DNA of 38,076 nucleotides from Nanobdellota archaeon (GTDB lineage Archaea > Nanobdellota > Nanobdellia > Woesearchaeales > GW2011-AR9): the NCBI GenBank assembly GCA_018812355.1, contig JAHJDQ010000150.1, forward strand, positions 1-38,076. Direction: 5' to 3'. Each line of letters starts with the position of its first letter. Position 1 is the first letter of the stretch. A program made the translations under genes and the position numbers. The notes beneath the pieces are model-generated. The model worked only from the letters and a program-made list of their open reading frames with translations, did no database searches and was not told the origin of the DNA. Of the stretch, positions 2,736-29,964 are shown one piece after another.

Positions 2736-2767
2736 GTTTAAGATATATCTGTTAAACTATCTAAATG

Positions 2768-2777
2768 TTTATATATA
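2768..2777 (+). promoter_or_regulatory. TATA-box-like element upstream of the DsbA-cupredoxin gene
   Basis: tttatatata lies about 40 nt upstream of the ATG at 2813, which has the RBS GAGGGTGA 5-6 nt upstream. The ORF-track ATG at 2765 lies against or within this box. Confidence 0.45.
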
Positions 2778-2812
2778 ATTTCTGGGAAAAATACAGGAAG
2801 AGGGTGATATTT

Positions 2813-4375
2813 ATGGAACAAAAACAAATTGATGAAATTGAAGGTTCTTACAAGGGTGAAGAGTTTATTGATGAAGAGGATTTACTCAATCACGGTATTG
2901 AGTTGGATGAGGTCAAAATCGAACCAGCCAAAGCTAAACGCGGTCGGCCTAAGAAATCTTCTAAAACGGTAGATATGAAAGCTGAAGAGCCAAAAGAAGA
3001 AATGACAGACAATTTTGATGAAGTTAAAGTAGTCCCAATTACAGAAGAACCGAAACCAGATCCAGCGAAAGAGCCTACTCCTGGTCCAGCTTATAATCCT
3101 TGGGATGATGAAGAGGAGAAAACTTCTAGTGGATCATCTACCTGGAAAGCGATTAGTGGAATTTTAGTCATTTTGCTGATTATTTCTATTTTTACGCAAG
3201 GATTTAACTTTGCTGATGGTGCGGGAGTAACCGGAGCAGCAACTGCAGAATTATCATTATCAGAAGCAGAAGAGCAAGCTCTGACTTATGTCAACACAAA
3301 CTTACTTCAACCGCCTTTTACTGCCGAATTAGAAAGTTCAGAAGATGTTGGTAGCATGTACAAAATTACTTTATCTGTTGCCGGCCAAGAAATTGATTCT
3401 TATTTAACAAAAGACGGCGAATTATTTTTCCCGCAGGGTTTTGATACCAGTGAAAGTTTAGACGACTTAACTGCTCCAACTACTGAAACAACTAGACTTG
3501 ACGTTTCCACAGATGACGATGCTGTCAAAGGAAATCCTGACGCTACCGTTACAATAGTGGAATTTAGCGAATTTCAATGTCCTTTCTGTGCAAAATTTTT
3601 CCAAGAAACTTATCCTTTGATTATCAAAAACTATGTCGATACTGGAAAAGTCAACTATGTTTTTAGAGACTTTCCTTTAGACTTTCATCAAAATGCCCAA
3701 AAAGCAGCAGAAGCCGCTGAATGTGCTGGTGAACAAGACAAGTATTACGAAATGCACGACTATTTATTCACAAACCAAGATTATCTGGAAGTTGAAAATT
3801 TAAAAGGTTATGCTAAAGATTTAGGATTAGATACTACTGAATTTAATGATTGTTTAGATAGCGGAGAGATGGAAGATGAAGTAAAAGCTGATCTAGCGGA
3901 AGGTAAGACTTACGGCGTTTCTGGTACTCCTGCTTTCTTTATTAATGGTAAGATGATTAGTGGAGCTCAACCTTACTCTGTTTTCACTACAGAAATTGAA
4001 GCAGCTTTAGCTGAAGATAATTCTGAATCCGTTGTTGAAGGAAATCTTGAAGAAGCACAGGAAGAAGTTACCGAAGAATTAGAAGAACCAGAAGTTGTCA
4101 TTCCCTCCGGTAAAACACAAGAGTTTACTGTTAATGCCAAACGTTGGTTGTTTAGTCCGAACGAATTTACGGTTAATAAGGGCGATACGGTTAAACTAAC
4201 TATTACAGCAAGCGATTTAGCCTTTACTTTTGCTGTTCCTGATTTAGGAGTTAGCGAAGAAGTTTCCGGTACAACCATAGTTGAGTTTACCGCTAGTCAA
4301 GCCGGCTCATTTGAATTTAAATGTGCTAGCTGTGAAGCCTGGCGAGGAATGACCGGAACTTTGGTTGTGGAATAG
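2813..4375 (+). CDS. membrane-anchored DsbA-like thiol:disulfide oxidoreductase fused to a C-terminal cupredoxin-like domain
   Basis: Start moved to MEQKQ (RBS-supported). Acidic/basic N-tail with an AT-hook-like KRGRPKK, one TM helix (ISGILVILLIISIF), a DsbA domain with CPFC, and a C-terminal beta-sandwich ending FKCASCEAWRGMTGTLVVE. The last resembles the domains in 19076-20509 and 32832-33251. Confidence 0.75.
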   Translation: MEQKQIDEIEGSYKGEEFIDEEDLLNHGIELDEVKIEPAKAKRGRPKKSSKTVDMKAEEPKEEMTDNFDEVKVVPITEEPKPDPAKEPTPGPAYNPWDDEEEKTSSGSSTWKAISGILVILLIISIFTQGFNFADGAGVTGAATAELSLSEAEEQALTYVNTNLLQPPFTAELESSEDVGSMYKITLSVAGQEIDSYLTKDGELFFPQGFDTSESLDDLTAPTTETTRLDVSTDDDAVKGNPDATVTIVEFSEFQCPFCAKFFQETYPLIIKNYVDTGKVNYVFRDFPLDFHQNAQKAAEAAECAGEQDKYYEMHDYLFTNQDYLEVENLKGYAKDLGLDTTEFNDCLDSGEMEDEVKADLAEGKTYGVSGTPAFFINGKMISGAQPYSVFTTEIEAALAEDNSESVVEGNLEEAQEEVTEELEEPEVVIPSGKTQEFTVNAKRWLFSPNEFTVNKGDTVKLTITASDLAFTFAVPDLGVSEEVSGTTIVEFTASQAGSFEFKCASCEAWRGMTGTLVVE

Positions 4376-4385
4376 ATATACGCTA

Positions 4386-4507
4386 AATTAGTGGGCGCCC
4401 TTCGGTGAGTAGCCTTTACTAAATGTGCGATCTGTAAGCCGAGGATGGCGAATAACGCCATGATGACCGAGGCGCAGTAGGGTGGTTCACCCTGGCCCCC
4501 ACTAATT
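4386..4507 (+). ncRNA. unclassified structured RNA, copy A (core 4388-4505, 118 nt)
   Basis: GC-rich island in an AT-rich spacer. Terminal stem TTAGTGGGCGCC/GGCCCCCACTAA; hairpins ATGGCG-AATAA-CGCCAT and AGGGTG-GTT-CACCCT. A paralogous copy at 9619-9735 carries compensatory changes. Confidence 0.6.
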
Positions 4508-4573
4508 ACAGTTAATTTAATACGTCCAAATAAGGGAAACCTTTTTAATTCCCTTTCTTTTTCTTTTCTTATT

Positions 4574-5149: not shown

Positions 5150-7096
5150 TTGAAGATGAGTAAAACACTTACTGAGAAAATAATTAAGAACCATCTGGTT
5201 GCCGGAAGCTTACAACAAGGCACAGAAGTTGCTTTAAGAATTGACCAAACTTTAACCCAAGATGCTACTGGAACGATGGCTTGTTTACAGTTTGAAGCCC
5301 TTGGCCTAGACAAAGTTAAAACTAAACTTTCGGTGAGTTATGTTGACCATAATACTCTTCAAACCAGTTCTGAGAATGCTGACGATCACCAATTCTTACA
5401 AACTTTTGCGGCTAAGTATGGGATTCAATTTTCTAAACCAGGAAATGGGATTTGCCATCAAGTACATCTGGAGAGATTTGCTCTACCTGGAGAAACTTTA
5501 CTTGGATCGGATAGTCATACTCCTACTGCTGGCGGTTTAGGCGTCTTAGCGATTGGCGCTGGCGGTTTAGATGTTGCTGTCGCGATGGCCGGCGGTGCGT
5601 TCCATTTAACTATGCCCAAAATTTTTGGAGTAAAATTAAACGGAAGATTAAATCCTTGGATTTCTGCTAAAGACGTTATTCTTGAACTTTTAGGAAAATT
5701 AGGAGTTGATGGTGGTGTGGGAAAAATATTTGAGTATTTTGGCGAAGGGGTAAAAACTTTAACTGTTCCGGAAAGAGCAACAATCACCAATATGGGCGCA
5801 GAATTAGGGGCAACAAGTTCAATCTTTCCAAGTGACCACATTACAAAAAAATTTATGGCAAGTCAGAACCGAGCAGAGTATTGGCAAGAGTTAAGTGCTG
5901 CTGAGGATGCTGTCTATGATCAAGTGATTGAAATTGATTTAAATAATATCGAACCAATGCTTGCTCAACCGCACAGTCCTGGAAATGTTTGTAAAGTAAC
6001 CGCAGTTGCCGGTTTAAAAATAAATCAGGTTTGTCTAGGTTCCTGCACCAATTCTTCTTACCAAGATTTGATGATTGTTGCCAAAACTCTTCAAGGCAAG
6101 AAAGTTTCTCCCGGAGTCAGTTTAGTTATTTCTCCCGGTTCAAAGCAAGTTTATGAAAGTATTGTTCAGAACGGAGCTTTAAACGATTTGATTAAAGCAG
6201 GAGCAAGAATTTTAGAATGTGCTTGTGGTCCCTGTATTGGGATGGGTCAAGCTCCCAACACTAATGCTATTTCTTTAAGAACATTTAACCGAAATTTTTA
6301 TGGACGGTCAGGGACTAATTCTGCCCAAATTTATTTGGTTAGTCCAGAAACGGCGGTTGCTTCTGCTCTTTATGGAGTTATTACTGACCCTCGTCAATTA
6401 GGAGAATCTCCCCCGATTAATACTCCAGAAACTTTTATTTTTAGTGACAGTTTACTTTTGCTTCCCGCAGAAAATCCTGCTGAAGTGGAGATTATCCGTG
6501 GTCCTAATATTAAACCTTTACCCTTAAATAAATCTTTGTCTAATCATCTGTTGGGAGAAGTGTTACTAAAAGTTGAAGATGATATCACTACTGATCATAT
6601 TATGCCGGCTGGTGCAAAAATCTTGCCTTTAAGAAGTAACATTCCGGCAATTAGTGAGTATGTTTTTGAGCGTGTTGATCCAGAATTTGTTCTTCGAGCG
6701 AAAGCGAAAAATGGCGGGTTTATTATTGGGGGAGAAAATTATGGCCAAGGCTCCAGTCGAGAACATGCTGCTTTAGCTCCGATGTATTTAGGGATTAAAG
6801 CAATCATTGCTAAAAGTTTTGCTCGTATCCATCGTGCTAATTTAATTAATTTTGGAATTTTACCTCTGGAATTTTTAGACAAAAATGATTACACTAGGAT
6901 TGAGCAAGGAGATCAGATCGAATTAGTTAATGTCCGAGAATTACTTGAACAAAAAAATAGTTTATTAGAAGTTAAAAATAAAACGCAAGGGATTACATTT
7001 AAAGTTAAACATAATTTAAGTGATCGATTAATAATGATCATCCTAGCCGGAGGGCTGTTAAACTACATTAAAAGAGGTGAAAAAAATGAACTTTGA
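5150..7096 (+). CDS. aconitate hydratase (about 650-aa fused large+small aconitase/IPM-isomerase type)
   Basis: Aconitase-family Fe-S ligand motifs GSCTNSS and CGPCIGMG, a swivel domain with [14 protein letters not shown], and an adjacent icd. Confidence 0.85.
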
Positions 7097-8330
7097 TTTT
7101 CTTCAGATTCCTGAAGCAGGAGAAAAAATTACCATGAGTGATGGTAAATTAATTGTTCCGTCTAATCCTTTGATTGGATTGATTATTGGCGATGGTATTG
7201 GTCCTGATATTAGTAGGGTGGGACAAAAAGTGATTGATGCTGCTGTTAAAAAAGCCTACACCAATCAAAGAAAAATTGTTTGGTGTGAATTGCCTGCAGG
7301 AGAATCTGCTTTACAACAATATGACACTATTTTACCTGAAGATACGCTTACCTTTCTCCAGAATTATCTAGTAGCGATCAAAGGGCCTTTAACCACTCCA
7401 GTCGGGAGCGGCACCAGAAGTTTAAATGTAACTTTAAGACAGAAACTAGACTTATATTCTTGTGTCCGTCCGGTAAAATATTTTCCGGGAGTACCTAGCC
7501 CAATGGTCTCTCCACAAAAATTAGATGTTATTATTTTTCGAGAGAATACAGAAGACCTTTACATGGGCATTGAGTGGAAAGAAGGAACTTTAGCTGCCCA
7601 AAAAATAATTTCTTTCTTAAAAACAGAGATGGGAGTAACGATTAGAGCAGATTCTGGCGTCGGCATAAAACCGATTAGTAAATTTGCTACCCAACGGTTG
7701 GTTAAATCTGCAATTGAGTATGCCCTCAAAAATAATCGCCGCTCGCTAACTTTAGTTCATAAAGGTAATATCATGAAATTTACTGAAGGTGCTTTTAAAG
7801 AATGGGGTTATGAAATTGCTCGGGAATATCCAGAATTAATTACGGAAGAAGAATTGTATCACAAGTATAATGGAACAGTCCCTGCTGGAAAAATTATCCT
7901 TAAAGACCGCATTGCTGATTCTATGTTCCAACAATTACTGTTGCGCCCAGAAGAATATGACCTTCTTGTCGCACCAAATCTTAATGGAGATTATCTTTCT
8001 GATGCCTGCGCGGCCCAAGTTGGCGGCTTAGGGATTGCTCCTGGAGCGAACATTAATTATGAAAGTGGTCATGCTTTGTTCGAAGCTACGCATGGCTCAG
8101 CGCCAAAATATACTGGGATGGATAAAGTCAATCCTGGTTCATTTATTTTATCTGGAGTAATGATGTTAGACTATTTGGGTTGGCATGAGGCAGCTCAATT
8201 AATTGTTAAAAGTTTTAGCACAATCATAACCCAAAAGACAGTAACCTACGATTTAGCACGCCAGATGGCCGGAGCAAAATTGTTAAAATGTTCAGAGTTT
8301 GGCGAAGCAATTATAAATAATATGTCTTGA
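7086..8330 (+). CDS. icd: isocitrate dehydrogenase (NADP-type, prokaryotic homodimeric family)
   Basis: [28 protein letters not shown] and [10 protein letters not shown] motifs. The ATG at 7086 sits 5 nt after the RBS AGAGGTGA; the track start at 7077 is a GTG inside that RBS. Confidence 0.9.
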
Positions 8331-8352: not shown

Positions 8353-9609
8353 GTGATTTTAAATAAAACAATTATTCATTTCAGAAAAAAAATTGCTGGA
8401 CTGGCTGGCTTAAATGAAACAGAAATACAACTCTTGCTGACACCAAACCACATTCATAAAGCAGAACTAGAAGTTAATGGTAAAACTTATCCTGCTTTTA
8501 GGGTTCAACATAATAATGCCAGAGGACCGTATAAAGGCGGGATTAGATTTCATCCCCAAGTTAATGAAGATGAAGTTAAAGCCTTAGCCTTCTGGATGTC
8601 TTTAAAGACGGCCGTTGCTGATCTTCCTTTAGGTGGAAGTAAAGGTGGCGTTACTGTAAATCCTAAAGAATTACCTATTGAAGAATTAGAAGAGTTAAGT
8701 CGATCTTATATCCGCGCTTTTTATCAACATTTAGGTTCAGCTCAAGATATTCCTGCTCCTGACGTTTATACTACTCCTCAGATAATGAGCTGGATGCTTG
8801 ATGAGTACGAAAAGTTAACTGGTAAAAAAGATCCGGGAATGATTACTGGTAAACCATTAGAAAACGGTGGTTCTTTAGTTAGAGATATTGCTACTGCTCT
8901 TGGTGGAGTTTATGTTTTAGAAGAAGCAATCCAAAAATTATCTTTATCAGGAAAAAGAGTTGCCATTCAGGGTTTTGGCAATGCCGGAATGAATATAGCT
9001 AAACTACTTTTTGACCAAGGCTACAAAATTTTAGCCGTTTCTGATTCAAAAGGTGGCGTTTATAATGAAAAAGGCTTAGATCCTTATCAAGCGGAAAACA
9101 TTAAGAAAGCAGGAGGTCTATTAGGTTGTTATTGTTTAGGTAGTGTTTGTTCAATTAAAGATGTTCCTTCTGAGGGTTTCTGTCGTGGAATTACTAATGA
9201 AGAATTATTGGAATTACCGGTAGACATTTTAATTCCTTCTGCTTTAAGTAATCAAATTACTGTTGAAAATGCTGCTAACATCAAAGCAAAAATCATTTTA
9301 GAATTAGCTAACGGTCCGACCACTCCTGAAGCTGATCAAATTTTGCACACAAATAATATTTTAGTACTGCCCGATATCCTCGCCAATGCTGGCGGAGTTA
9401 CCGTTTCTTGTTTTGAATGGCAGCAGAATCTTGCCAACGAAAAATGGGATGAACAAACAATTAAACAAAAGTTAAAAGATAAATTAGTGACAGCTTTTAA
9501 TCAAATCTGGACTGAGTATGATCAGAACGAACACGATTTCCGAACCAATACTTACATCTTAGCGATAAAAAAGATTCTCGCTGCAGAGAAGTTAAAAGGC
9601 AGATTATAG
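8353..9609 (+). CDS. gdhA: glutamate dehydrogenase
   Basis: GDH signature KGGIRFHPQVNEDEVKALAFWMSLKTAVADLPLGGSKGG and Rossmann GFGNAG. GTG start 6 nt after GGAGGT. Confidence 0.9.
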   Translation: MILNKTIIHFRKKIAGLAGLNETEIQLLLTPNHIHKAELEVNGKTYPAFRVQHNNARGPYKGGIRFHPQVNEDEVKALAFWMSLKTAVADLPLGGSKGGVTVNPKELPIEELEELSRSYIRAFYQHLGSAQDIPAPDVYTTPQIMSWMLDEYEKLTGKKDPGMITGKPLENGGSLVRDIATALGGVYVLEEAIQKLSLSGKRVAIQGFGNAGMNIAKLLFDQGYKILAVSDSKGGVYNEKGLDPYQAENIKKAGGLLGCYCLGSVCSIKDVPSEGFCRGITNEELLELPVDILIPSALSNQITVENAANIKAKIILELANGPTTPEADQILHTNNILVLPDILANAGGVTVSCFEWQQNLANEKWDEQTIKQKLKDKLVTAFNQIWTEYDQNEHDFRTNTYILAIKKILAAEKLKGRL

Positions 9610-9618
9610 AATGTATTA

Positions 9619-9735
9619 AGTTAGTGGGTGCCCTTTTGTGAGTAGCTTTTTCTAATTGAGCGAAATGTAAGCCGAGGATCGTGAAACGATAATAACCGAG
9701 GCGCAGAAGAAATTTCACTCTGGCCCCCACTAACT
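9619..9735 (+). ncRNA. unclassified structured RNA, copy B (core 9621-9733, 113 nt)
   Basis: Same blocks as copy A: TTAGTGGG, GTGAGTAGC, TGTAAGCCGAGGAT, ACCGAGGCGCAG, CTGGCCCCCACTAA. Its hairpin ATCGT-GAA-ACGAT replaces ATGGCG-AATAA-CGCCAT. Confidence 0.6.
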
Positions 9736-9807
9736 AAGAAATTTAATCACAAATTTAAGGAAAAGTTTATTTACTTTTTCTTTTTTTATTTACTTTGGTG
9801 GTTTAAA

Positions 9808-14446: not shown

Positions 14447-14899
14447 TTATTCAATTTTTATCCTTACATTCTTATAAGTATAAACAGTTATTAAACTAAT
14501 TATCAGCAGAGAAATAATACAAAAGATACAAATTGCTTTAATAATAAATAATTCTGTATAAGTTAAGTATAAAGAAAAGATTAAAGCAACAAAAGTAACA
14601 TAAAATAAATTCTTTTGAGAAAATATTTTCTTCATCCATTTATTTTTTAACCATTTCTCTTTCTGTAATCGGACCAGCGCAATCAAACCAATCAGAACAT
14701 AACCAATAATCCCCATTAAAGCAGTCGGCACGCCCACAAATCTTGAATAACTGCTATTCTTTACTGCTGAACATGATAGTGTTTCACTGATATCACAACC
14801 TTGTTCTCCTTCCGCATAGAAAATGTTCAGTAAATAAATAGAAACCAAAATACCTAAAAAGGCTAAAAAAATAATTTTCTTAAGTATTTTCTTCTTCAT
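14447..14899 (-). CDS. vitamin K epoxide reductase (VKOR) family protein
   Basis: Four TM helices, a loop cysteine pair (GCDISETLSC), the SRFVGVP motif and a CxxC in the last helix (CIFC). Confidence 0.8.
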   Translation of the reverse strand: MKKKILKKIIFLAFLGILVSIYLLNIFYAEGEQGCDISETLSCSAVKNSSYSRFVGVPTALMGIIGYVLIGLIALVRLQKEKWLKNKWMKKIFSQKNLFYVTFVALIFSLYLTYTELFIIKAICIFCIISLLIISLITVYTYKNVRIKIE

Positions 14900-14922: not shown

Positions 14923-17124
14923 TTATAACTTTTTCCTTTTTAACAACAACGAATTAGTAATCACTGATACCGAACTTAAAGCCATCGCCCCGCCAGCGAT
15001 TACTGGATTAAGTAACCAACCTGTCCAGGGATATAAAACACCAGCGGCAATTGGTATTCCCAGTGAATTATAAAACAAGGCCCAGAACATATTCTGGCGA
15101 ATTTTACTCATCGTCATCTTACTTAACTTAATTGCTTTCGGAACATCTAAAAGATTATTCCGCATTAAAACCACATTACCTGTTTCCATTGCTACGTCCG
15201 TACCAGAACCCATGGCAATCCCAATATCAGCCTGTGCTAAAGCAGGAGCATCATTAATTCCATCTCCGACCATCGCTACTTTACCATCTTTCTGTAATCT
15301 TTTAACATACTTTACTTTATCTTCCGGAAGAACTTCCGCAAAATAATTCTTTATTCCTGCTTTTTTGGCAATCGCGGCAGCAGTTCTTTTATTATCTCCT
15401 GTAATCATGTAAACTTTAACACCTAACTCCTGCAATTTCTTAATGGCAAGAGGGGAGTCCGATTTAATTTCATCAGCTACAGCAATCACACCTAACACTT
15501 TCTTGCCTTCTGCCAGAATCATTGTTGTCTTTCCTTCACTTTCTAACTTAGAGATCTTTCCAGAGAAAGCAGCTAAACTCACTTTCTGTTCTTCCATTAA
15601 TCTTAAGTTTCCTAAATAATATTCTTTCTTTCCTAATTTTGCTTTTACTCCTCTTCCTGTTAAAGCTTTAAATCCATTAACTTTCTTCCAACTAACTTTC
15701 TTAGCTTGTGCTTTCTTAACAATCGCTTCCGCTTAAGGATGTTCAGAACTTTTTTCCATACTTCCAGCAATCTCTAACAACTTCTTCTCCGTAATTCCTT
15801 TTCCAACAACTAAATCGGTCACTTCCGGCTCGCCTTTAGTGATTGTTCCTGTTTTATCAAAGACCACATACTTCAATTTATGCGCAGTTTCTAACGCTTC
15901 TCCACCTTTAATTAAAATACCGTGCTTAGCTCCCTTACCCGTACCTACCATAATTGCTGTTGGCGTAGCAAGACCTAAAGCACAAGGACAAGCAATCACT
16001 AACACAGCAACAGCAGCAATAATTGCAAAGCCTACTTCTGCATGGAATAAAGAGAACCACACTGTAAATGTAATTAAAGCAATAAAAATTACGATGGGAA
16101 CGAAGTAAGCAGAAACATTATCTGCAAACCTTTGGATTGGCGCTTTTTTTGTCTGCGCATCTTCAATTAATTTAATGATTCTAGAAAGTGTCGTCTCACT
16201 ACCAACTTTTGTTGCTTTAAATTTAAAACTGCCTTGTTTGTTAATCGTCGAACCAATAACTAAATCCTTCTTGCCCTTCTCGACCGGAATACTCTCACCA
16301 GTAACAAGAGATTCATCTATCGTTGAATGACCTTCTGTAATCACACCATCAACAGGAATTTTCTCTCCGGGCTTAACAATAACAATATCATCTTTTTTAA
16401 CATCGTCAATGGGAATTTTAATTTCTTTACCGTTTCTAACTACAAGAGCAGTTTTTGCACCCATCTTCATTAACTTAGAGATTGCTTCTGAGGTTTTTCC
16501 TTTCGCCACCGCTTCCAAATACTTACCAAAAATAACTAAAGTAATCAAAACAGCAGAAGCTTCAAAATACTGATGTCCTTTAGCCGCAAATAAAACAACA
16601 TAAACAGAATAGAAATACGCTGCACTAGTACCCATGGCAATTAACGTATCCATATTAGAAGTTTTATTCTTTAAAGCAGCCCATGCCCCCTGATAAAATT
16701 GTCTTCCTACATAAAATTGGACTGGTGTTGCTAATGCCCACATAATATACTCTTGAAAAGGGATTGGATTCTTCATAAAAAACATTCCCAAAATAAAAGC
16801 AGGCACTCCAAAAATAGCACTCAGAATAACTTTAAATCTTAATCTTTTCAACTCTACTTTCTTTTTCTTCTCTTCTAGTGTAATCCCATGTCCCGCATGA
16901 TGTCCATGCTCTTTAATAATATGACCACCATAACCTTTTTTCTTAATCAACTCTAACAATTGATTTTCATTAGTTTGTTTTTCATCAAACTCAATCGCTG
17001 CTTTTTCTGTCGAGAAATTAACATTAGCAGTCTTGACTCCGACTTGTTTTTTCAAAGCTCGATCAATGATCGTTACGCAACTCTGGCAGTGCATTCCCGT
17101 AATATTAATCGTTGTTTTTTTCAT
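14923..17124 (-). pseudogene. copA: copper-translocating P1B-type ATPase interrupted by one in-frame TAA
   Basis: ORFs 15733-17124 and 14923-15597 are in the same frame. HMA domain GMHCQSC, CPC, DKTGT, then SEHP-TAA-AEAIV where SEHPL is expected. GDGINDAP lies in the downstream part, and the 135 nt between the two track ORFs also translate in frame as ATPase-like sequence. Confidence 0.85.
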
Positions 17125-19075: not shown

Positions 19076-20509
19076 TTAACCTCCACAACCGCAGCCTCCT
19101 CCTCCGCCACCACAACTCCCTCCTGAAGGAACTTCAATATTATTTAATTCTTCCTGTACAGAATTAACATCAAGATTATCTTTAACCACAAATACTCCTG
19201 GAATCATGCCCATCCAGCAGCTCCAGGAAATTGTTCCTGTTTCTGTCGGCGTAAATTCAATTACTTGTTCTCCTTTTTTAATGTCAAACTTCAATCCTAA
19301 CTTCGGAACTTGAATCGCGTTATTACATCCATTAATTTCCTTACCTTCAATAATCCATTTTACGGGAACATCTTTTTGTAAGACAAATTTATCCGGTTCC
19401 CAACCATAACGGTTTACTTCCATTCTGATTTCTTGATAACCCTCATTTAAAACTAGTCCTCCCGTGGGGGAACTGTCCTCGCCTAAAACAGTAAAACCAG
19501 ATGTCAAAGAATTTAAATCATAACCAGAACCGGTAAGTGCTAAACCGCGATTAATCATAATCAAACCAAGAACTATTACGACAACTCCAGACGCTTTCAA
19601 GATTTTATGGGTGGCTTTCTTACTAATGATACTAGTAAGATAACCAAAACCAAGCATTACTGGTAGAGTGCCGAGAGCAAAGACAAACAATAATTTTGCC
19701 CCTTCTAACCAACTTCCCGTTCCTGCTGCCATAATATAAATCGCTTGCAATGGACCACAGGCAATCATTAAACCGTTTAACAAACCAATCACTAACGGAT
19801 TATTAGAATGGGTTTTTGATTCTTTACCAACAAACTTACTTACAAACTTAGGCATTCTTATCTGAAATTTTCTTAAAGCTGGAATCACATTCAACATTTT
19901 CAACCCGAAAATTACTAAAAATAATCCTGCTATAATTCCGGCTCCTCCTCTCATCGCCGGAGTAAAGGCAATAATACTTCCTAATAATCCAAAAGCTGCT
20001 CCAATCACAGTATAAGATATTAATTTACCAATTCCATACGATAAATGTAATCTTGCTGGTTTCTTACCTTCCTCTGCTCCTTTAGCCGTATAAGAAACCA
20101 CAAAACCGCCGCACATCCCGACACAATGAAACCCAGTCAATAAACCCACGACAAATAATAATCCATAACTCATTCCTGCACTAATTGCCGGAAGTTGAAT
20201 CTTCCCATAAATTGTCCAGGCAAAATAAATTACTAAAATAAAACCAATTCCGGCAAAAGCCCAACCTAACCAACTATTTTTCTTGTTCCCATCAAAATCT
20301 TTACACAGATAACCTTTATCTTCAATCGCTTTTTTAATCTCGCCTAAAGATACCACTGCTGGATCATACTCAATCTCTGTCTTTTCAGTAGCGTAATCAA
20401 CATCAATTCCTTTTACTCCCTTTAATTTTAAAACTTGCTTCGCAATAATCTTCTCACAACTATGACAAGTCATTCCTGCAGTTTTAATTGTTTTTTTTGT
20501 TAATACCAT
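19076..20509 (-). CDS. HMA domain + DsbD_2/TauE-like polytopic membrane domain + C-terminal cupredoxin-like domain
   Basis: N-terminal GMTCHSC. TM core with GFHCVGMCGGF. C-terminal beta-sandwich (QEIRMEVNRYGWEPDKF...SWSCWMGMIPGVFVV). Gly/Cys tail SGGSCGGGGGGCGCGG. Confidence 0.75.
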   Translation of the reverse strand: MVLTKKTIKTAGMTCHSCEKIIAKQVLKLKGVKGIDVDYATEKTEIEYDPAVVSLGEIKKAIEDKGYLCKDFDGNKKNSWLGWAFAGIGFILVIYFAWTIYGKIQLPAISAGMSYGLLFVVGLLTGFHCVGMCGGFVVSYTAKGAEEGKKPARLHLSYGIGKLISYTVIGAAFGLLGSIIAFTPAMRGGAGIIAGLFLVIFGLKMLNVIPALRKFQIRMPKFVSKFVGKESKTHSNNPLVIGLLNGLMIACGPLQAIYIMAAGTGSWLEGAKLLFVFALGTLPVMLGFGYLTSIISKKATHKILKASGVVVIVLGLIMINRGLALTGSGYDLNSLTSGFTVLGEDSSPTGGLVLNEGYQEIRMEVNRYGWEPDKFVLQKDVPVKWIIEGKEINGCNNAIQVPKLGLKFDIKKGEQVIEFTPTETGTISWSCWMGMIPGVFVVKDNLDVNSVQEELNNIEVPSGGSCGGGGGGCGCGG

Positions 20510-20760: not shown

Positions 20761-21648
20761 TCAATTAAGTTCTGCTTCAATCACTTGCGCAAACGCTGCG
20801 AAAGGTTGTGCACCAGAGATTAGTTTACCATTAACAATAAATCCCGGAGTTCCACTAATTCCTGCTCTTTGTCCGTCAGAAAAGTCTTTTCGAACTTCTC
20901 CTGCCATTGCTCCTGAATCTAAACAAGTGTTAAATTCAGCAGTATCTAAACCAATACTCGCAGCATAACTTTTGAAAGCAGTTACTCCTCCACTAACACC
21001 ATTCTCAAACAACTTATCATGCATTTCAAAATATTTGTCTTGCTCACCAGCACATTCAGCGGCTTCTGCTGCTTTTTGGGCATTTTGATGGAAACTTAAC
21101 GGGAAGTCTCGATAAATTAATTTAACCTTACCAGTCTCAATATACTCAGATCTTAATTGTTGTAAAGTGCCACTATAAAATTTTTCACAGAATGGACATT
21201 CATAATCACTCCACTCTACTATTGTTACGGGCGCATCTTCATCTCCTTCAATTGCATCGTCATCAATTAAAGCTTCCATGTCTACGGCTGCTGCTGCTGC
21301 GCTCGGCGCATTATCTACTCCTGTCGGCAAATCGCCATCATCTGTATTAACGACAACACTTCCATCAGGAAGTTTCACAGCAATGAATAACAACAAAGCA
21401 ATCTGCACAATTACTGCAGCTGCTAAAAATTTCTGAAAACTGTTTAAACCTTTATCCGAACAACATTCTTTTTTCTCAGCAACCCGATGATGTGGTTTAT
21501 GGTGTTCTGGCTTGTGTTTTTTTCCTTCATGATATTCATGAATTTTTTGCTCATGTGGTTTGTGTTCTTTATGTTCTGGAACATGATGTCCCTTATCTTC
21601 AGAGGGCTTATGCTCATGTTCGCCTCCTTCTTTTTCAAAATGTGTCAT
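20761..21648 (-). CDS. membrane-anchored DsbA-like oxidoreductase with a His-rich N-terminal tail
   Basis: About 65-aa His/Lys/Glu-rich tail (HEHKPSEDKGHHVPEHKEHKPHEQKIHEYHEGKKHKPEHHKPHH) plus a CC pair, one TM helix, and a DsbA domain with CPFC. Paralogue of 2813-4375. Confidence 0.8.
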   Translation of the reverse strand: MTHFEKEGGEHEHKPSEDKGHHVPEHKEHKPHEQKIHEYHEGKKHKPEHHKPHHRVAEKKECCSDKGLNSFQKFLAAAVIVQIALLLFIAVKLPDGSVVVNTDDGDLPTGVDNAPSAAAAAVDMEALIDDDAIEGDEDAPVTIVEWSDYECPFCEKFYSGTLQQLRSEYIETGKVKLIYRDFPLSFHQNAQKAAEAAECAGEQDKYFEMHDKLFENGVSGGVTAFKSYAASIGLDTAEFNTCLDSGAMAGEVRKDFSDGQRAGISGTPGFIVNGKLISGAQPFAAFAQVIEAELN

Positions 21649-27068: not shown

Positions 27069-28028
27069 ATGATGTTCAAAGAAGATGTTTTATGTATAGG
27101 TTCGGCTACTTTAGATCATTTCTTAACTGTTGAGCAATCTTTAAAATCAATCAAACTGGGTGATAAAGTTCTAGTTAATCGGATGGAAAAACATTCTGGC
27201 GGAGGAGCAACTAATGCCGCGGCAGCTTTATCCAAACTGGGATTAAAAGTAAAAATTCTTTCTAAATTAGGGAATGATCATGATGCAGATTTTATTTTGA
27301 AAGAAATGAAACAGTACAAAGTAAAAAACATCTGTTTGCATCATAGTTATAAAAATACTGACTTCTCAACTTTAATCTCTTCTTCTAAAGAAAAAGACCG
27401 TGTTATTTACGTGCATAAGGGGGCTTCTCAAGATCTTCTTAATACCGATTTCAAAAAATCACAATTAAAAGCAAAATGGATCTATTTATCTTCTCTCTTA
27501 GGAAAATCATTTCAAACCGCTACTGAAATTGTTCAGTATGCACAAAAAAAGAAAATTAAAATTTTGTTCAATCCTTCATTATATTTAGATAAAAAAGGCA
27601 AAAGTTACCTTGCTTCCATTTTAAAAAAGACTACTATTTTAGTTTTGAATAAAGAGGAAGCAGCTGCTTTGAGTAAGACTAACACCATTAAAAAAATGCT
27701 CTTAAAACTGCATCAGTTTGGACCAGAAACAGTAGTAATTACTAATGGTATCAAAAAACTTCATGCTTTACATGAAAATATCATTTATTCATTAATCCCC
27801 TCTGATGTTAAAGTTGTCCATACGGCAGGGGCAGGAGATGCTTTCACTTCTGGCTTATTAGCAGGGATAATCAAGAATTATTCATTTACGGATGCTTTAC
27901 GTTTAGGGCAAGTTAATTCCTATGCTGTCATCCAACACATCGGTACGAAGAATAAATTGCTCACTGAAAAAGAAGCCAAATTAATGATGAGGAAATATAA
28001 GATTAAGGTGCACAAAAATGTCCTCTAG
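27069..28028 (+). CDS. PfkB-family carbohydrate/nucleoside kinase
   Basis: N-terminal GGGATNAA and C-terminal TAGAGDAFTSG motifs of the ribokinase superfamily. Confidence 0.85.
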   Translation: MMFKEDVLCIGSATLDHFLTVEQSLKSIKLGDKVLVNRMEKHSGGGATNAAAALSKLGLKVKILSKLGNDHDADFILKEMKQYKVKNICLHHSYKNTDFSTLISSSKEKDRVIYVHKGASQDLLNTDFKKSQLKAKWIYLSSLLGKSFQTATEIVQYAQKKKIKILFNPSLYLDKKGKSYLASILKKTTILVLNKEEAAALSKTNTIKKMLLKLHQFGPETVVITNGIKKLHALHENIIYSLIPSDVKVVHTAGAGDAFTSGLLAGIIKNYSFTDALRLGQVNSYAVIQHIGTKNKLLTEKEAKLMMRKYKIKVHKNVL

Positions 28029-29964
28029 AAAACTAATTGATTGGATTAAGTCAGCAGAGGCTAAGAAAATTCCTGATAGTAAACTAAAGAAAATTATGAT
28101 AAAACGTGGCTGGCCTGAAAAAGATATTGATCATGCGATCGATCTTGCTCATAAGAAAAAAGTTAATTGGCTGCCTTTGATTTTGATGTTTATTGGATCA
28201 TTCCTTTTGTTTGTTTTTACTAATTCTGTTAATCGTGGTGATGAAATATTTTTTTGGCTATTTACAAGCACGACTATTGCTATAATTTATTCTCTATTAA
28301 TTTATTATAAAACCAATAAAAAAGAATCATTTATTGAATTTTTTATAATTAATTTTTCATCTGGTCTATTATCTTTAACCATATCATTTTTATTCTTCAA
28401 TTTCGTTGTACTTTTAGTTTATTTAATTAAAATTCCGGTGACAATCCCTCTAATCATCATCATTTCTGCTTTATCTATTACGCTCCTATTTTATCTTTTC
28501 TTTCTCACAGTTTCTCTCTTATCCAAACATTTTATGGGTTACTTTGATCATGAATCATTTTTTATATTTAAACATTGGCCGATGAAGATATTTAATGTCA
28601 ATTGGCAAAAGAAATGGACTTTGTTAAAGTATCCCGCGGTCGTTATCGTTATTGGATTGATTGTCTGTACTATTTTATTCAGTTTACTTGCAGAAAAAAC
28701 CAATCAACAGAATAATAACTCTCAATTTACACTTAAAGAACATTTAAGACAACAAATTCAAGATAATTGTATTATAGGTTATTCTGAAGATATATTTACT
28801 TGTTCTCCTTTTAATCAAGAACAATTAGAGTTAAAATATGTGCAAGAAGTAGAAACAGCAAGAAAAGATCTCTGGTTAGATGTCGAGAGTAAGACTCTCC
28901 CTAGAACAACTATTTTCAATTTTTTTGATGCAACCATAGAAAGACTATCTTATTTATTAAAATATGGGATGGAATGGGCTTTCCAAAGAGAACAATGGAA
29001 TATTATCAAAGAATTATCTCCAGCAGAACAGCAATTGTTATTCTATGACAATTTTGAGAATAGTTTAAGTCAATGGCGTTCGCAAGATTTGGTTTATAAC
29101 CCTTATGGGGGTTTCTGGCACATTGAAGAAGAACAAAATAATAAAGCACTGGAAGGGTTTGAACATATTTGGGTTCATGCCGGCTCGGAAGATTTTAAAA
29201 CAAGTATTTTTGAAACCAAGTTTAAAATTCTTGATGGAGGAGCACATATTAATTTCATTAATCGCGATTATCCTGGCGAGGGCCGATATTATGTTTCTGT
29301 TGCTGAGAATCATCTTGGATTGCATCGCCAGTATGATAATTGGGAAATATTTGAAGAGCTTGAATCAGTTAGTATTAATCTTAAAAAAGGGGAATGGTAC
29401 GATTTAAGAATTGAACTTAACGAATCTAATGATAAGTACATCACCATTTTCCTTAATGATAAGATTGTTTTAAGCAATCCACACGTTCCAATTTATAATA
29501 CTGGTTCAATTGCTTTTGAAACATTAGACAATTCTGTGATTTGGTTTGATGATGTAAAAGTTTTTGGTAATTATCAAGACGAACAGCAAGCTCTAGAATA
29601 TAACGTCTTCGAAAAAACAGACGATGAATTAACTAAATATATCGAGGAAAAAGAAAAGAATATTGCTGTATCATATCAACAATCTTTTGCTTCGGAACGT
29701 AACCAAGAATTTGACATCTTGGGATACCAAGAACAAAATGCTTATCGTTACAAATATATATTTTCATTTTTTGATTCTTATGATTATTTATCAGGAAGAT
29801 TAATTTATTTAGAAAAATTAAAACAAGAGATTGTTAAAGTTCTGGATGATTATTACAAGAATAAAATAAATGTTATTTATAATAATAGAAATGTTGAGGA
29901 ATCATTACAAAGTAAAGCAATCAGATTAACAGTGATGGAGAGGTTTTTAGAAAATGCTCGCTAA
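28018..29964 (+). CDS. polytopic membrane protein with a C-terminal LamG/DUF1080-like jelly-roll domain
   Basis: 648 aa. Short helical N-domain (RGWPEKDIDHAIDL), about 6 TM helices, and a large C-terminal region with FYDNFENSLSQWRS...WYDLRIELN...IAFETLDNSVIWFDDVKVFG. Overlaps both neighbours by 11 nt. Confidence 0.5.
   Translation: MSSRKLIDWIKSAEAKKIPDSKLKKIMIKRGWPEKDIDHAIDLAHKKKVNWLPLILMFIGSFLLFVFTNSVNRGDEIFFWLFTSTTIAIIYSLLIYYKTNKKESFIEFFIINFSSGLLSLTISFLFFNFVVLLVYLIKIPVTIPLIIIISALSITLLFYLFFLTVSLLSKHFMGYFDHESFFIFKHWPMKIFNVNWQKKWTLLKYPAVVIVIGLIVCTILFSLLAEKTNQQNNNSQFTLKEHLRQQIQDNCIIGYSEDIFTCSPFNQEQLELKYVQEVETARKDLWLDVESKTLPRTTIFNFFDATIERLSYLLKYGMEWAFQREQWNIIKELSPAEQQLLFYDNFENSLSQWRSQDLVYNPYGGFWHIEEEQNNKALEGFEHIWVHAGSEDFKTSIFETKFKILDGGAHINFINRDYPGEGRYYVSVAENHLGLHRQYDNWEIFEELESVSINLKKGEWYDLRIELNESNDKYITIFLNDKIVLSNPHVPIYNTGSIAFETLDNSVIWFDDVKVFGNYQDEQQALEYNVFEKTDDELTKYIEEKEKNIAVSYQQSFASERNQEFDILGYQEQNAYRYKYIFSFFDSYDYLSGRLIYLEKLKQEIVKVLDDYYKNKINVIYNNRNVEESLQSKAIRLTVMERFLENAR

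Follow-up and report, generated by a model that had tools for sequence, protein, structure and literature searches.

A structurally constrained palindromic element, a candidate MITE-like insertion, at unrelated loci of Woesearchaeota

The window, by which we mean the whole 38,076-nucleotide stretch of a Woesearchaeota (DPANN) contig that was analysed, contains two copies of the same GC-rich element. Copy A follows a gene encoding a DsbA-cupredoxin fusion (2765-4375), and its 118-nt core begins 12 nt past the TAG stop of that gene (4373-4375), in agreement with the initial annotation, which had placed the start 11-13 nt after the TAG. The sharp GC-rich island in an AT-rich spacer that had been described there was recovered as well, GC content being 0.56 across 4380-4499 vs. 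0.28-0.40 in the surroundings. The second copy that had been reported further downstream, copy B, has a core of 113 nt that is 81% identical to that of copy A and likewise begins 12 nt past a TAG stop, here of a glutamate dehydrogenase (GDH) gene. A third version of the element, on a contig designated L005, lies between csp and a diphthine synthase gene, and all three copies have the same orientation as both of their flanking genes. Downstream of copies A and B are genes for a 173-aa protein and a 150-aa lipoprotein, respectively, for which paralogy was rejected since the two proteins show no similarity (E = 0.93). The unit therefore has different neighbours on either side at each site, and it sits at three unrelated loci. 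The features of the two copies in the window are listed below, with scores from a covariance model (CM R1) of the element.

4369-4387, + strand: left arm of copy A, A/T-rich, containing the TAG stop at 4373-4375; homology to the relative L030 ends at 4368, and the outer boundary is approximate
4388-4505, + strand: GC-rich core of copy A, a rod-like hairpin (fold of -46.9 kcal/mol, z = -3.1; 124.6 bits with CM R1)
4388-4399, + strand: 5' strand of helix P1 (core 1-12), pairing with 4494-4505 through 8 + 3 bp around a C.C mismatch
4405-4409, + strand: 5' strand of P2, GUGAG, pairing with UUCAC at 4486-4490 (core 18-22/99-103)
4413-4415, + strand: 5' strand of the 3-bp helix P2b, CCU, pairing with AGG at 4479-4481 (core 26-28/92-94)
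4433-4476, + strand: P3 arm (core 46-89), with the apical hairpin at 4445-4461
4494-4505, + strand: 3' strand of P1 (core 107-118), partner of 4388-4399
4506-4525, + strand: right arm of copy A, A/T-rich, with a AATTTAAT box at 4514-4521 that is conserved in the three-copy alignment; the outer boundary is approximate
9589-9599, + strand: left target copy, AAGTTAAAAGG, still coding for GDH (...KLKG) and aligning to 11 nt of the relative L028, AAATTAAAGGG
9600-9750, + strand: whole inserted unit of copy B, 151 nt, delimited by comparison with the empty site in L028 (whole-unit fold z = -3.1)
9600-9620, + strand: left arm of copy B, within the inserted unit, carrying the GDH stop TAG at 9607-9609
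9621-9733, + strand: core of copy B, 113 nt (138.7 bits with CM R1; fold z = -2.6)
9734-9750, + strand: right arm of copy B, within the inserted unit, with AATTTAAT at 9740-9747
9751-9772, + strand: right target copy, AAATTTAAGG (9751-9760), then a remnant of the old GDH 3' end, AAAAGTTTAT, as aligned to L028

When the covariance model was scanned at all positions with its speed filters off, exactly two copies were found in the 38 kb. The minus strands of copies A and B also match the model, weakly, because the element has dyad symmetry. Since the copies differ by indels of 1, 2, and 4 nt, there is no conserved reading frame and the element is non-coding. A small protein encoded on its minus strand was rejected because these indels break the frame, and a comparison of the minus-strand open frame of the core with a protein collection, made to catch spurious ORF calls over other copies, returned no candidates. 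As for known RNA families, Rfam 15 gave no match at the gathering score in the whole window, and 300-nt pieces around both copies searched at E ≤ 10 gave only noise in the A/T-rich flanks, with no 5S, SRP, riboswitch, or ribozyme, so that the original description of the element as unclassified stands. Rfam also found nothing on ~92 kb of related Woesearchaeota loci, and the window has neither tRNA nor tmRNA genes.

How widespread the element might be was assessed by exact-pattern scans of genomes and metagenomes, which may have missed more divergent relatives. In a collection with one genome per species, the scan detected one true homologue (L005) and two chance matches. The metagenome scan detected two true matches, identical to L005 and located on marine contigs of at least 100 kb, together with eight chance matches, and a synteny look-up added a fourth instance of this marine version, again identical to L005. 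A marine Woesearchaeota lineage (L005, L007, L012, and L188) is thus the source of the sole further version found beyond copies A and B, and three distinct element sequences are known. Their pairwise identities are 81-84%, copies A and B being about as distant from each other as each is from the marine version, as would be expected if they had inserted independently rather than arisen by a recent duplication in place. An identity of ~82% has been maintained between the versions of the groundwater and marine lineages. No copy was found in viral contigs by three pattern scans followed by a covariance model screen of 1.2 Mb, blastn against phage and plasmid collections gave no match, and synteny walks from GDH and diphthine-synthase homologues led to empty sites and no new copies. 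The GDH protein of the window is also present on NCBI assemblies GCA_018822045.1 and GCA_018825475.1, and its best homologues are Woesearchaeota/Nanoarchaeia proteins. The L005 contig (CAZXEM010000013.1), which is AT-rich with 30% GC, carries the bin label "uncultured Methanosarcinales archaeon". Its diphthine synthase has its closest homologues in Woesearchaeota, with 80-88% identity, and the contig is probably mis-binned.

All three element loci are empty in their closest syntenic relatives, which are L030 for copy A, L028 for copy B, and L035 for L005. The relatives of the window have in common with it the gene order MacB-MacB-ABC-DsbA/cupredoxin-...-GDH-...-AsnRS. At the copy B locus, the distance from the GDH stop to the next gene is 35 nt in L028, where GDH is 78% identical, vs. 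198 nt in the window. Similarly, csp and dph5 are separated by 123 nt in L035 (Dph5 88% identical) vs. 285 nt in L005, and in L030 the gap from the cupredoxin gene to the 173-aa gene is 60 nt. Scanning of the relatives' loci with CM R1 (~0.35 Mb in total, partly redundant) revealed no copy. Unusually long post-GDH spacers were seen in two other relatives, L032 (7728-8269, 540 nt) and L194 (11240-11545, 306 nt), with no element copy in either. We also observed that the aconitase and isocitrate dehydrogenase genes found in the window between the 173-aa gene and GDH (5150-8330) are replaced by a malic-enzyme gene in L028 (1690-2961) and L030 (5709-6986); this swapped segment falls between copies A and B.

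At copy B, one 11-nt site of L028, AAATTAAAGGG, is matched by the left and the right flank alike, which defines the insert as 9600-9750 and the duplication as 10-11 nt. The downstream flank aligns to the GDH end and spacer of L028 with a score of 61, equalled in none of 500 shuffles. The original last GDH codons, AAAAGTTTAA in L028, are found as AAAAGTTTAT downstream of copy B, and the alignment continues into the spacer and the next gene. In the window, GDH ends in ...KGRL-TAG, the last codons and the stop coming from the left arm of the element, vs. ...KGKV-TAA in L028. Read against the empty site, these sequences indicate that the element inserted in the last GDH codons, duplicated a 10-11 bp target, and now supplies the stop codon. 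A spliced intron at this position was rejected, since excision would restore the old frame but the old stop has decayed to TAT. In L005, the flanks of the insert overlap by 6-8 nt on the empty site of L035, within a low-complexity T-rich tract, so that the lengths of the target duplications differ (11 nt for copy B vs. 6-8 nt for L005). At copy A, no target duplication is recognisable relative to L030, the boundaries being bracketed to 4369-4535, and homology of the downstream flank to L030 restarts at 4536. The terminator-like hairpin and T-run 3' of copy A turned out to be native to the locus: they are conserved in the element-free L030 and fit the TATA-to-ATG spacing of this genome, which identifies them as the promoter/5' region of the next gene, and an intrinsic terminator was therefore rejected.

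Similarity between copies extends beyond the core, by ~10-20 nt on the left (ATAGA...ATGTATYAAG) and by ~17-20 nt on the right (...AATTTAATAC), and the left arm of copy A resembles that of copy B (ATAGA...TAAR). In each of the three folds, pairing between the arms makes the hairpin longer, so that the unit is a ~150-bp palindromic element in which the strongest inverted repeat, P1 (12 nt, imperfect), is subterminal, 17-21 nt inside the ends. The extreme ends of copy B, caGATTA.../...TAATCac, form inverted repeats of 5-7 nt.

A single rod-like, unbranched hairpin with 32 pairs is supported by the three versions, and CM R1 has no branch points. In P1, core positions 1-8 pair with 111-118 and 10-12 with 107-109. 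In copy A, this corresponds to TTAGTGGGCGCC/GGCCCCCACTAA, the terminal helix with one C/C mismatch that had been seen in the sequence; L005 has lost one G-C pair from both strands and has G-U in place of another G-C. Four pairs of P2 are invariant, the fifth being G-U in copies A and B and U.U in L005. P2b covaries, with CCU/AGG in copy A, CUU/AAG in copy B, and CUA/UAG in L005. The P3 arm is made of, in this order, UGU/GCA, an AA bulge, GCC/GGC, a symmetric loop of tandem G.A, GG/CC, a 5-nt RAURA bulge, and the apical hairpin. The latter was correctly predicted in copy A as ATGGCG-AATAA-CGCCAT and reads ATCGT-GAA-ACGAT in copy B and ATGGC-GAA-GCCAT in L005, which introduces two compensatory pairs in the apical stem (G-C/C-G and C-G/U-A). 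The second hairpin that had been proposed, AGGGTG-GTT-CACCCT, exists in copy A alone; all copies pair GUGA(G) with (U)UCAC instead.

Relative to shuffles, the folds of copies A and B have z values of -3.1 and -2.6, respectively, which on their own would be weak evidence, and the minus strands do nearly as well. Comparison of the three versions is more telling: seven of the 32 pairs vary, and six of these seven are kept, four by double compensatory changes (in P2b and the apical stem), one by the paired deletion in P1, and one by the change from G-C to G-U. Solely P2 has a broken pair, its last, in one of the three sequences, and varying columns represent 19% of paired vs. 48% of unpaired positions. 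In a simulation of neutral decay (100,000 runs), which started from the consensus and gave each copy its observed number of substitutions, ~10 broken pairs and 0.24 double-kept pairs were expected; the probability of at least four double-kept pairs was ~1e-4, and that of at most one broken pair was 0 in the 100,000 runs. The + strand is better paired than the minus strand (32/32/30 vs. 30/30/28 standard pairs in A/B/L005) because of three G-U pairs, U48-G87, G22-U99, and, in L005, G4-U115. These findings show that the + strand hairpin of the element is under selection and not decaying, since compensatory changes keep the 32-pair fold across three diverged copies. The claim that the element is structured is thereby borne out, its homologues showing the covariation on which it had been made to depend.

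Other motifs fared variably. The internal loops UGUAAGCCGAGGAU and ACCGAGGCGCAG are invariant across the three versions, which is only mildly surprising for runs of this length since 68% of all columns are invariant. The direct repeat CCGAGG is indeed present twice, and is invariant in all copies, but the proposed switch in which either repeat would pair with the 5' CCTTCGG is not conserved because the latter reads CCTTTTG in copy B and CCTTTAG in L005. In the modelled fold, the two repeats more likely pair with one another around tandem G.A pairs. The alternative pairing of GCGCC (8-12) with GGCGC (84-88), also suggested at the outset, can form in all three copies. An AGUA/GAA loop E does not hold up, the sequence being GAU in copy A and UUGA/GUAA in L005. 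A K-turn or a C/D-box sRNA was rejected, since the tandem G.A pairs lie in a symmetric loop without a 3-nt bulge, AUGAUGA is found in copy A alone (copy B has AUAAUAA, L005 has AUAAUGA), and a CUGA box is lacking. Archaeal replication-origin boxes were considered from the sequence and rejected.

Taken together, we think it on balance probable that the 118-nt core and its ~20-nt arms form a non-autonomous, non-coding, MITE-like palindromic insertion element of ~150 bp, found in a few Woesearchaeota lineages. The 151-nt unit of copy B lies within the 50-800 bp, without coding sequence, that is expected of MITEs, and the element is present in one lineage and absent at the orthologous site in another at all three loci. 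Furthermore, a woesearchaeal genome has been reported to be among the most MITE-dense archaeal genomes (PMC11602168). Several observations argue against a MITE: 1) copy number is low, with two copies in 38 kb and one in the contigs of at least 100 kb of the other lineage, as counted by exact-pattern scans, 2) the age and divergence of the copies do not fit a typical MITE burst, 3) neither an autonomous parent element nor a transposase was found in the 38-kb window, 4) a transposase that recognises only the ends would not require invariant internal loops, as are seen for UGUAAGCCGAGGAU and ACCGAGGCGCAG, 5) the best inverted repeat, P1, is subterminal and the repeats at the extreme ends of copy B are short, MITEs being expected to carry at least 10-15 bp there, 6) a target duplication is clear at copy B, lies in low-complexity sequence at L005, is not recognisable at copy A, and differs in length, and 7) the element is represented by three distinct sequences only.

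The strong selection on pairing in every copy and the G-U pairs that favour the + strand would also be expected of an independent gene, with an A/T-rich promoter arm and a downstream T-run, that encodes a new structured small RNA of ~115 nt acting in trans and that spread by duplication or horizontal transfer. Mobility would then be incidental, and the RNA would have a cellular role, for instance as a protein-binding scaffold. RNA genes of AT-rich archaea classically stand out as GC-rich islands, the copy number is as low as one or two per genome region, the identity of ~82% spans groundwater and marine lineages, and the L005 copy is a solitary one, ~100 nt past a T-rich terminator-like tract and not joined to a stop codon. 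We nevertheless regard this explanation as doubtful. The nearest relatives of both lineages lack the element, which is therefore dispensable, a signature of insertion and target duplication is present, and the two copies within one genome differ by 19%. In addition, the TATA-like boxes of the left arm are merely 8-17 nt from P1, and the usual spacing of ~26 nt, as deduced from the upstream regions of the genes in the window, would put the start inside the core, past the 5' strand of P1. It is unlikely, too, that the element is a horizontally mobile gene for an undescribed DPANN structured RNA whose rod fold, with its AA bulge, tandem G.A pairs, and 5-nt bulge, is bound by a host or element-encoded protein; were this true, the element would be more than what is left of a transposon, namely a functional RNA that spreads itself.

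A role in cis, either as a riboswitch-like leader of the downstream secreted-protein genes or as a regulatory or stabilising 3'-UTR element of the upstream genes, could account for the orientation that the three copies share with their neighbours, for the start of copies A and B 12 nt past a stop codon, and for the alternative GCGCC/GGCGC pairing. It is, however, very unlikely: the flanking genes are unrelated across loci, the two downstream proteins of the window being dissimilar, orthologous genes in relatives lack the element, no riboswitch family matches, and the element is upstream of the native promoters of these downstream genes, which places it outside their leaders. The earlier suggestion of an RNA derived from the 3' UTR of the DsbA-cupredoxin gene overlooks what matters most, namely that a ~150-nt insertion, absent in relatives, lies behind unrelated genes. 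Finally, the element might be a highly divergent member of a known RNA family of like size, such as 5S rRNA (~120 nt; RF00001). Its length of ~118 nt, its ends paired in a ~11-bp helix, its high GC content in an AT-rich genome, and a GUAAGCC-like stretch are reminiscent of archaeal 5S rRNA. This is extremely improbable, since 300-nt pieces searched at E ≤ 10 gave no credible covariance model match, the fold shared by the copies is an unbranched rod rather than a three-way junction with helix II/III and helix IV/V arms, the candidate helix II (13-18/52-57) is broken by a mismatch in copy B and L005, neither loop E (AGUA/GAA) nor loop C is conserved, and the copies are 19% apart and inside insertion scars. 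The GC-rich small RNAs of the HgcC-G class were found by composition screens in AT-rich archaea, and they are fixed chromosomal genes with families in Rfam. The element resembles them in its stable fold and in having been detected as a sharp GC island in AT-rich intergenic DNA, but it matches no Rfam family, including these, and is an insertion.

Going back to a MITE-like palindromic insertion, the element shares with MITEs 1) a size of ~150 bp without an ORF and a location between genes or at gene ends, 2) an inverted-repeat architecture, sites that are empty in relatives, and more than one diverged copy in one genome, and 3) a short direct duplication that flanks copy B and probably L005. 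It differs from them by its very low copy number and old copies, by its strongest inverted repeat being subterminal, by its whole length being one imperfect palindrome kept by compensatory change, by the lack of a known cognate transposase, and by a duplication of non-uniform length. Bacteria with compact genomes have comparable intergenic repeats, which act as RNA. Rickettsia palindromic elements, ERIC/IRU, and Neisseria Correia elements are imperfect palindromes of 100-150 bp that form long hairpins in transcripts. They insert non-destructively beside coding sequences or even into their ends, occur in host-dependent organisms whose genomes are reduced, and usually have tens to hundreds of copies. 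The likeness extends to size, imperfect palindrome, long hairpin, insertion at coding-sequence ends, and reduced genome, whereas the element described here is archaeal (DPANN), is known in three versions, and has no sequence similarity to them. We conclude that this unclassified, structurally constrained element most probably belongs to the palindromic/MITE class rather than being a new kind of RNA gene.

How such an element would move and persist can be outlined. An enzyme encoded elsewhere would move it in trans, as there is no transposase nearby. Copies A and B would be transcribed as the 3' end of the upstream mRNA, because they begin 12 nt past its stop codon on the same strand. The selected hairpin could be the form that is recognised during mobilisation, possibly when single-stranded, or else a stem at the 3' end of the upstream transcript that protects or terminates it, which would keep the harm done by insertion small. 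The G-U pairs and the shared gene orientation slightly favour selection on the transcript over selection on a single-stranded mobilisation form.

To our knowledge, almost nothing is known of the non-coding RNAs or mobile DNA of DPANN archaea, whose genomes are tiny. The element documents at base-level resolution how a small insertion hit the last codons of a gene, brought its own stop codon, and had its hairpin kept by compensatory evolution. Should this hairpin function as RNA, archaea would have in this element an equivalent of the palindromic elements in reduced bacterial genomes, and one through which the tolerance of such genomes for selfish DNA could be studied. Should the element be no more than a MITE, it would be an ordinary addition to a class already reported to be abundant in Woesearchaeota.

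Two other regions of the window deserve mention. A 648-aa ORF without Pfam match (28018-29964) lies between genes for a PfkB kinase and a class II aldolase. The DsbA-cupredoxin fusion upstream of copy A (2765-4375) is part of a disulfide/copper gene cluster, a notable investment for a small-genome DPANN archaeon, which further comprises VKOR (14447-14899), an HMA-ATPase (15733-17124), an HMA-DsbD-cupredoxin fusion (19076-20509), and a second DsbA (20761-21648). The ATPase, a copper-type P-type enzyme (HMA + E1-E2 ATPase + HAD) encoded on the minus strand, is split by a single in-frame TAA at 15733-15735. This codon sits between ORFs 15733-17124 and 14923-15597, at the Leu of the conserved motif SEHPLAEAIV (SEHP*AEAIV), and may reflect a nonsense mutation or pseudogene, a sequencing error, or read-through.
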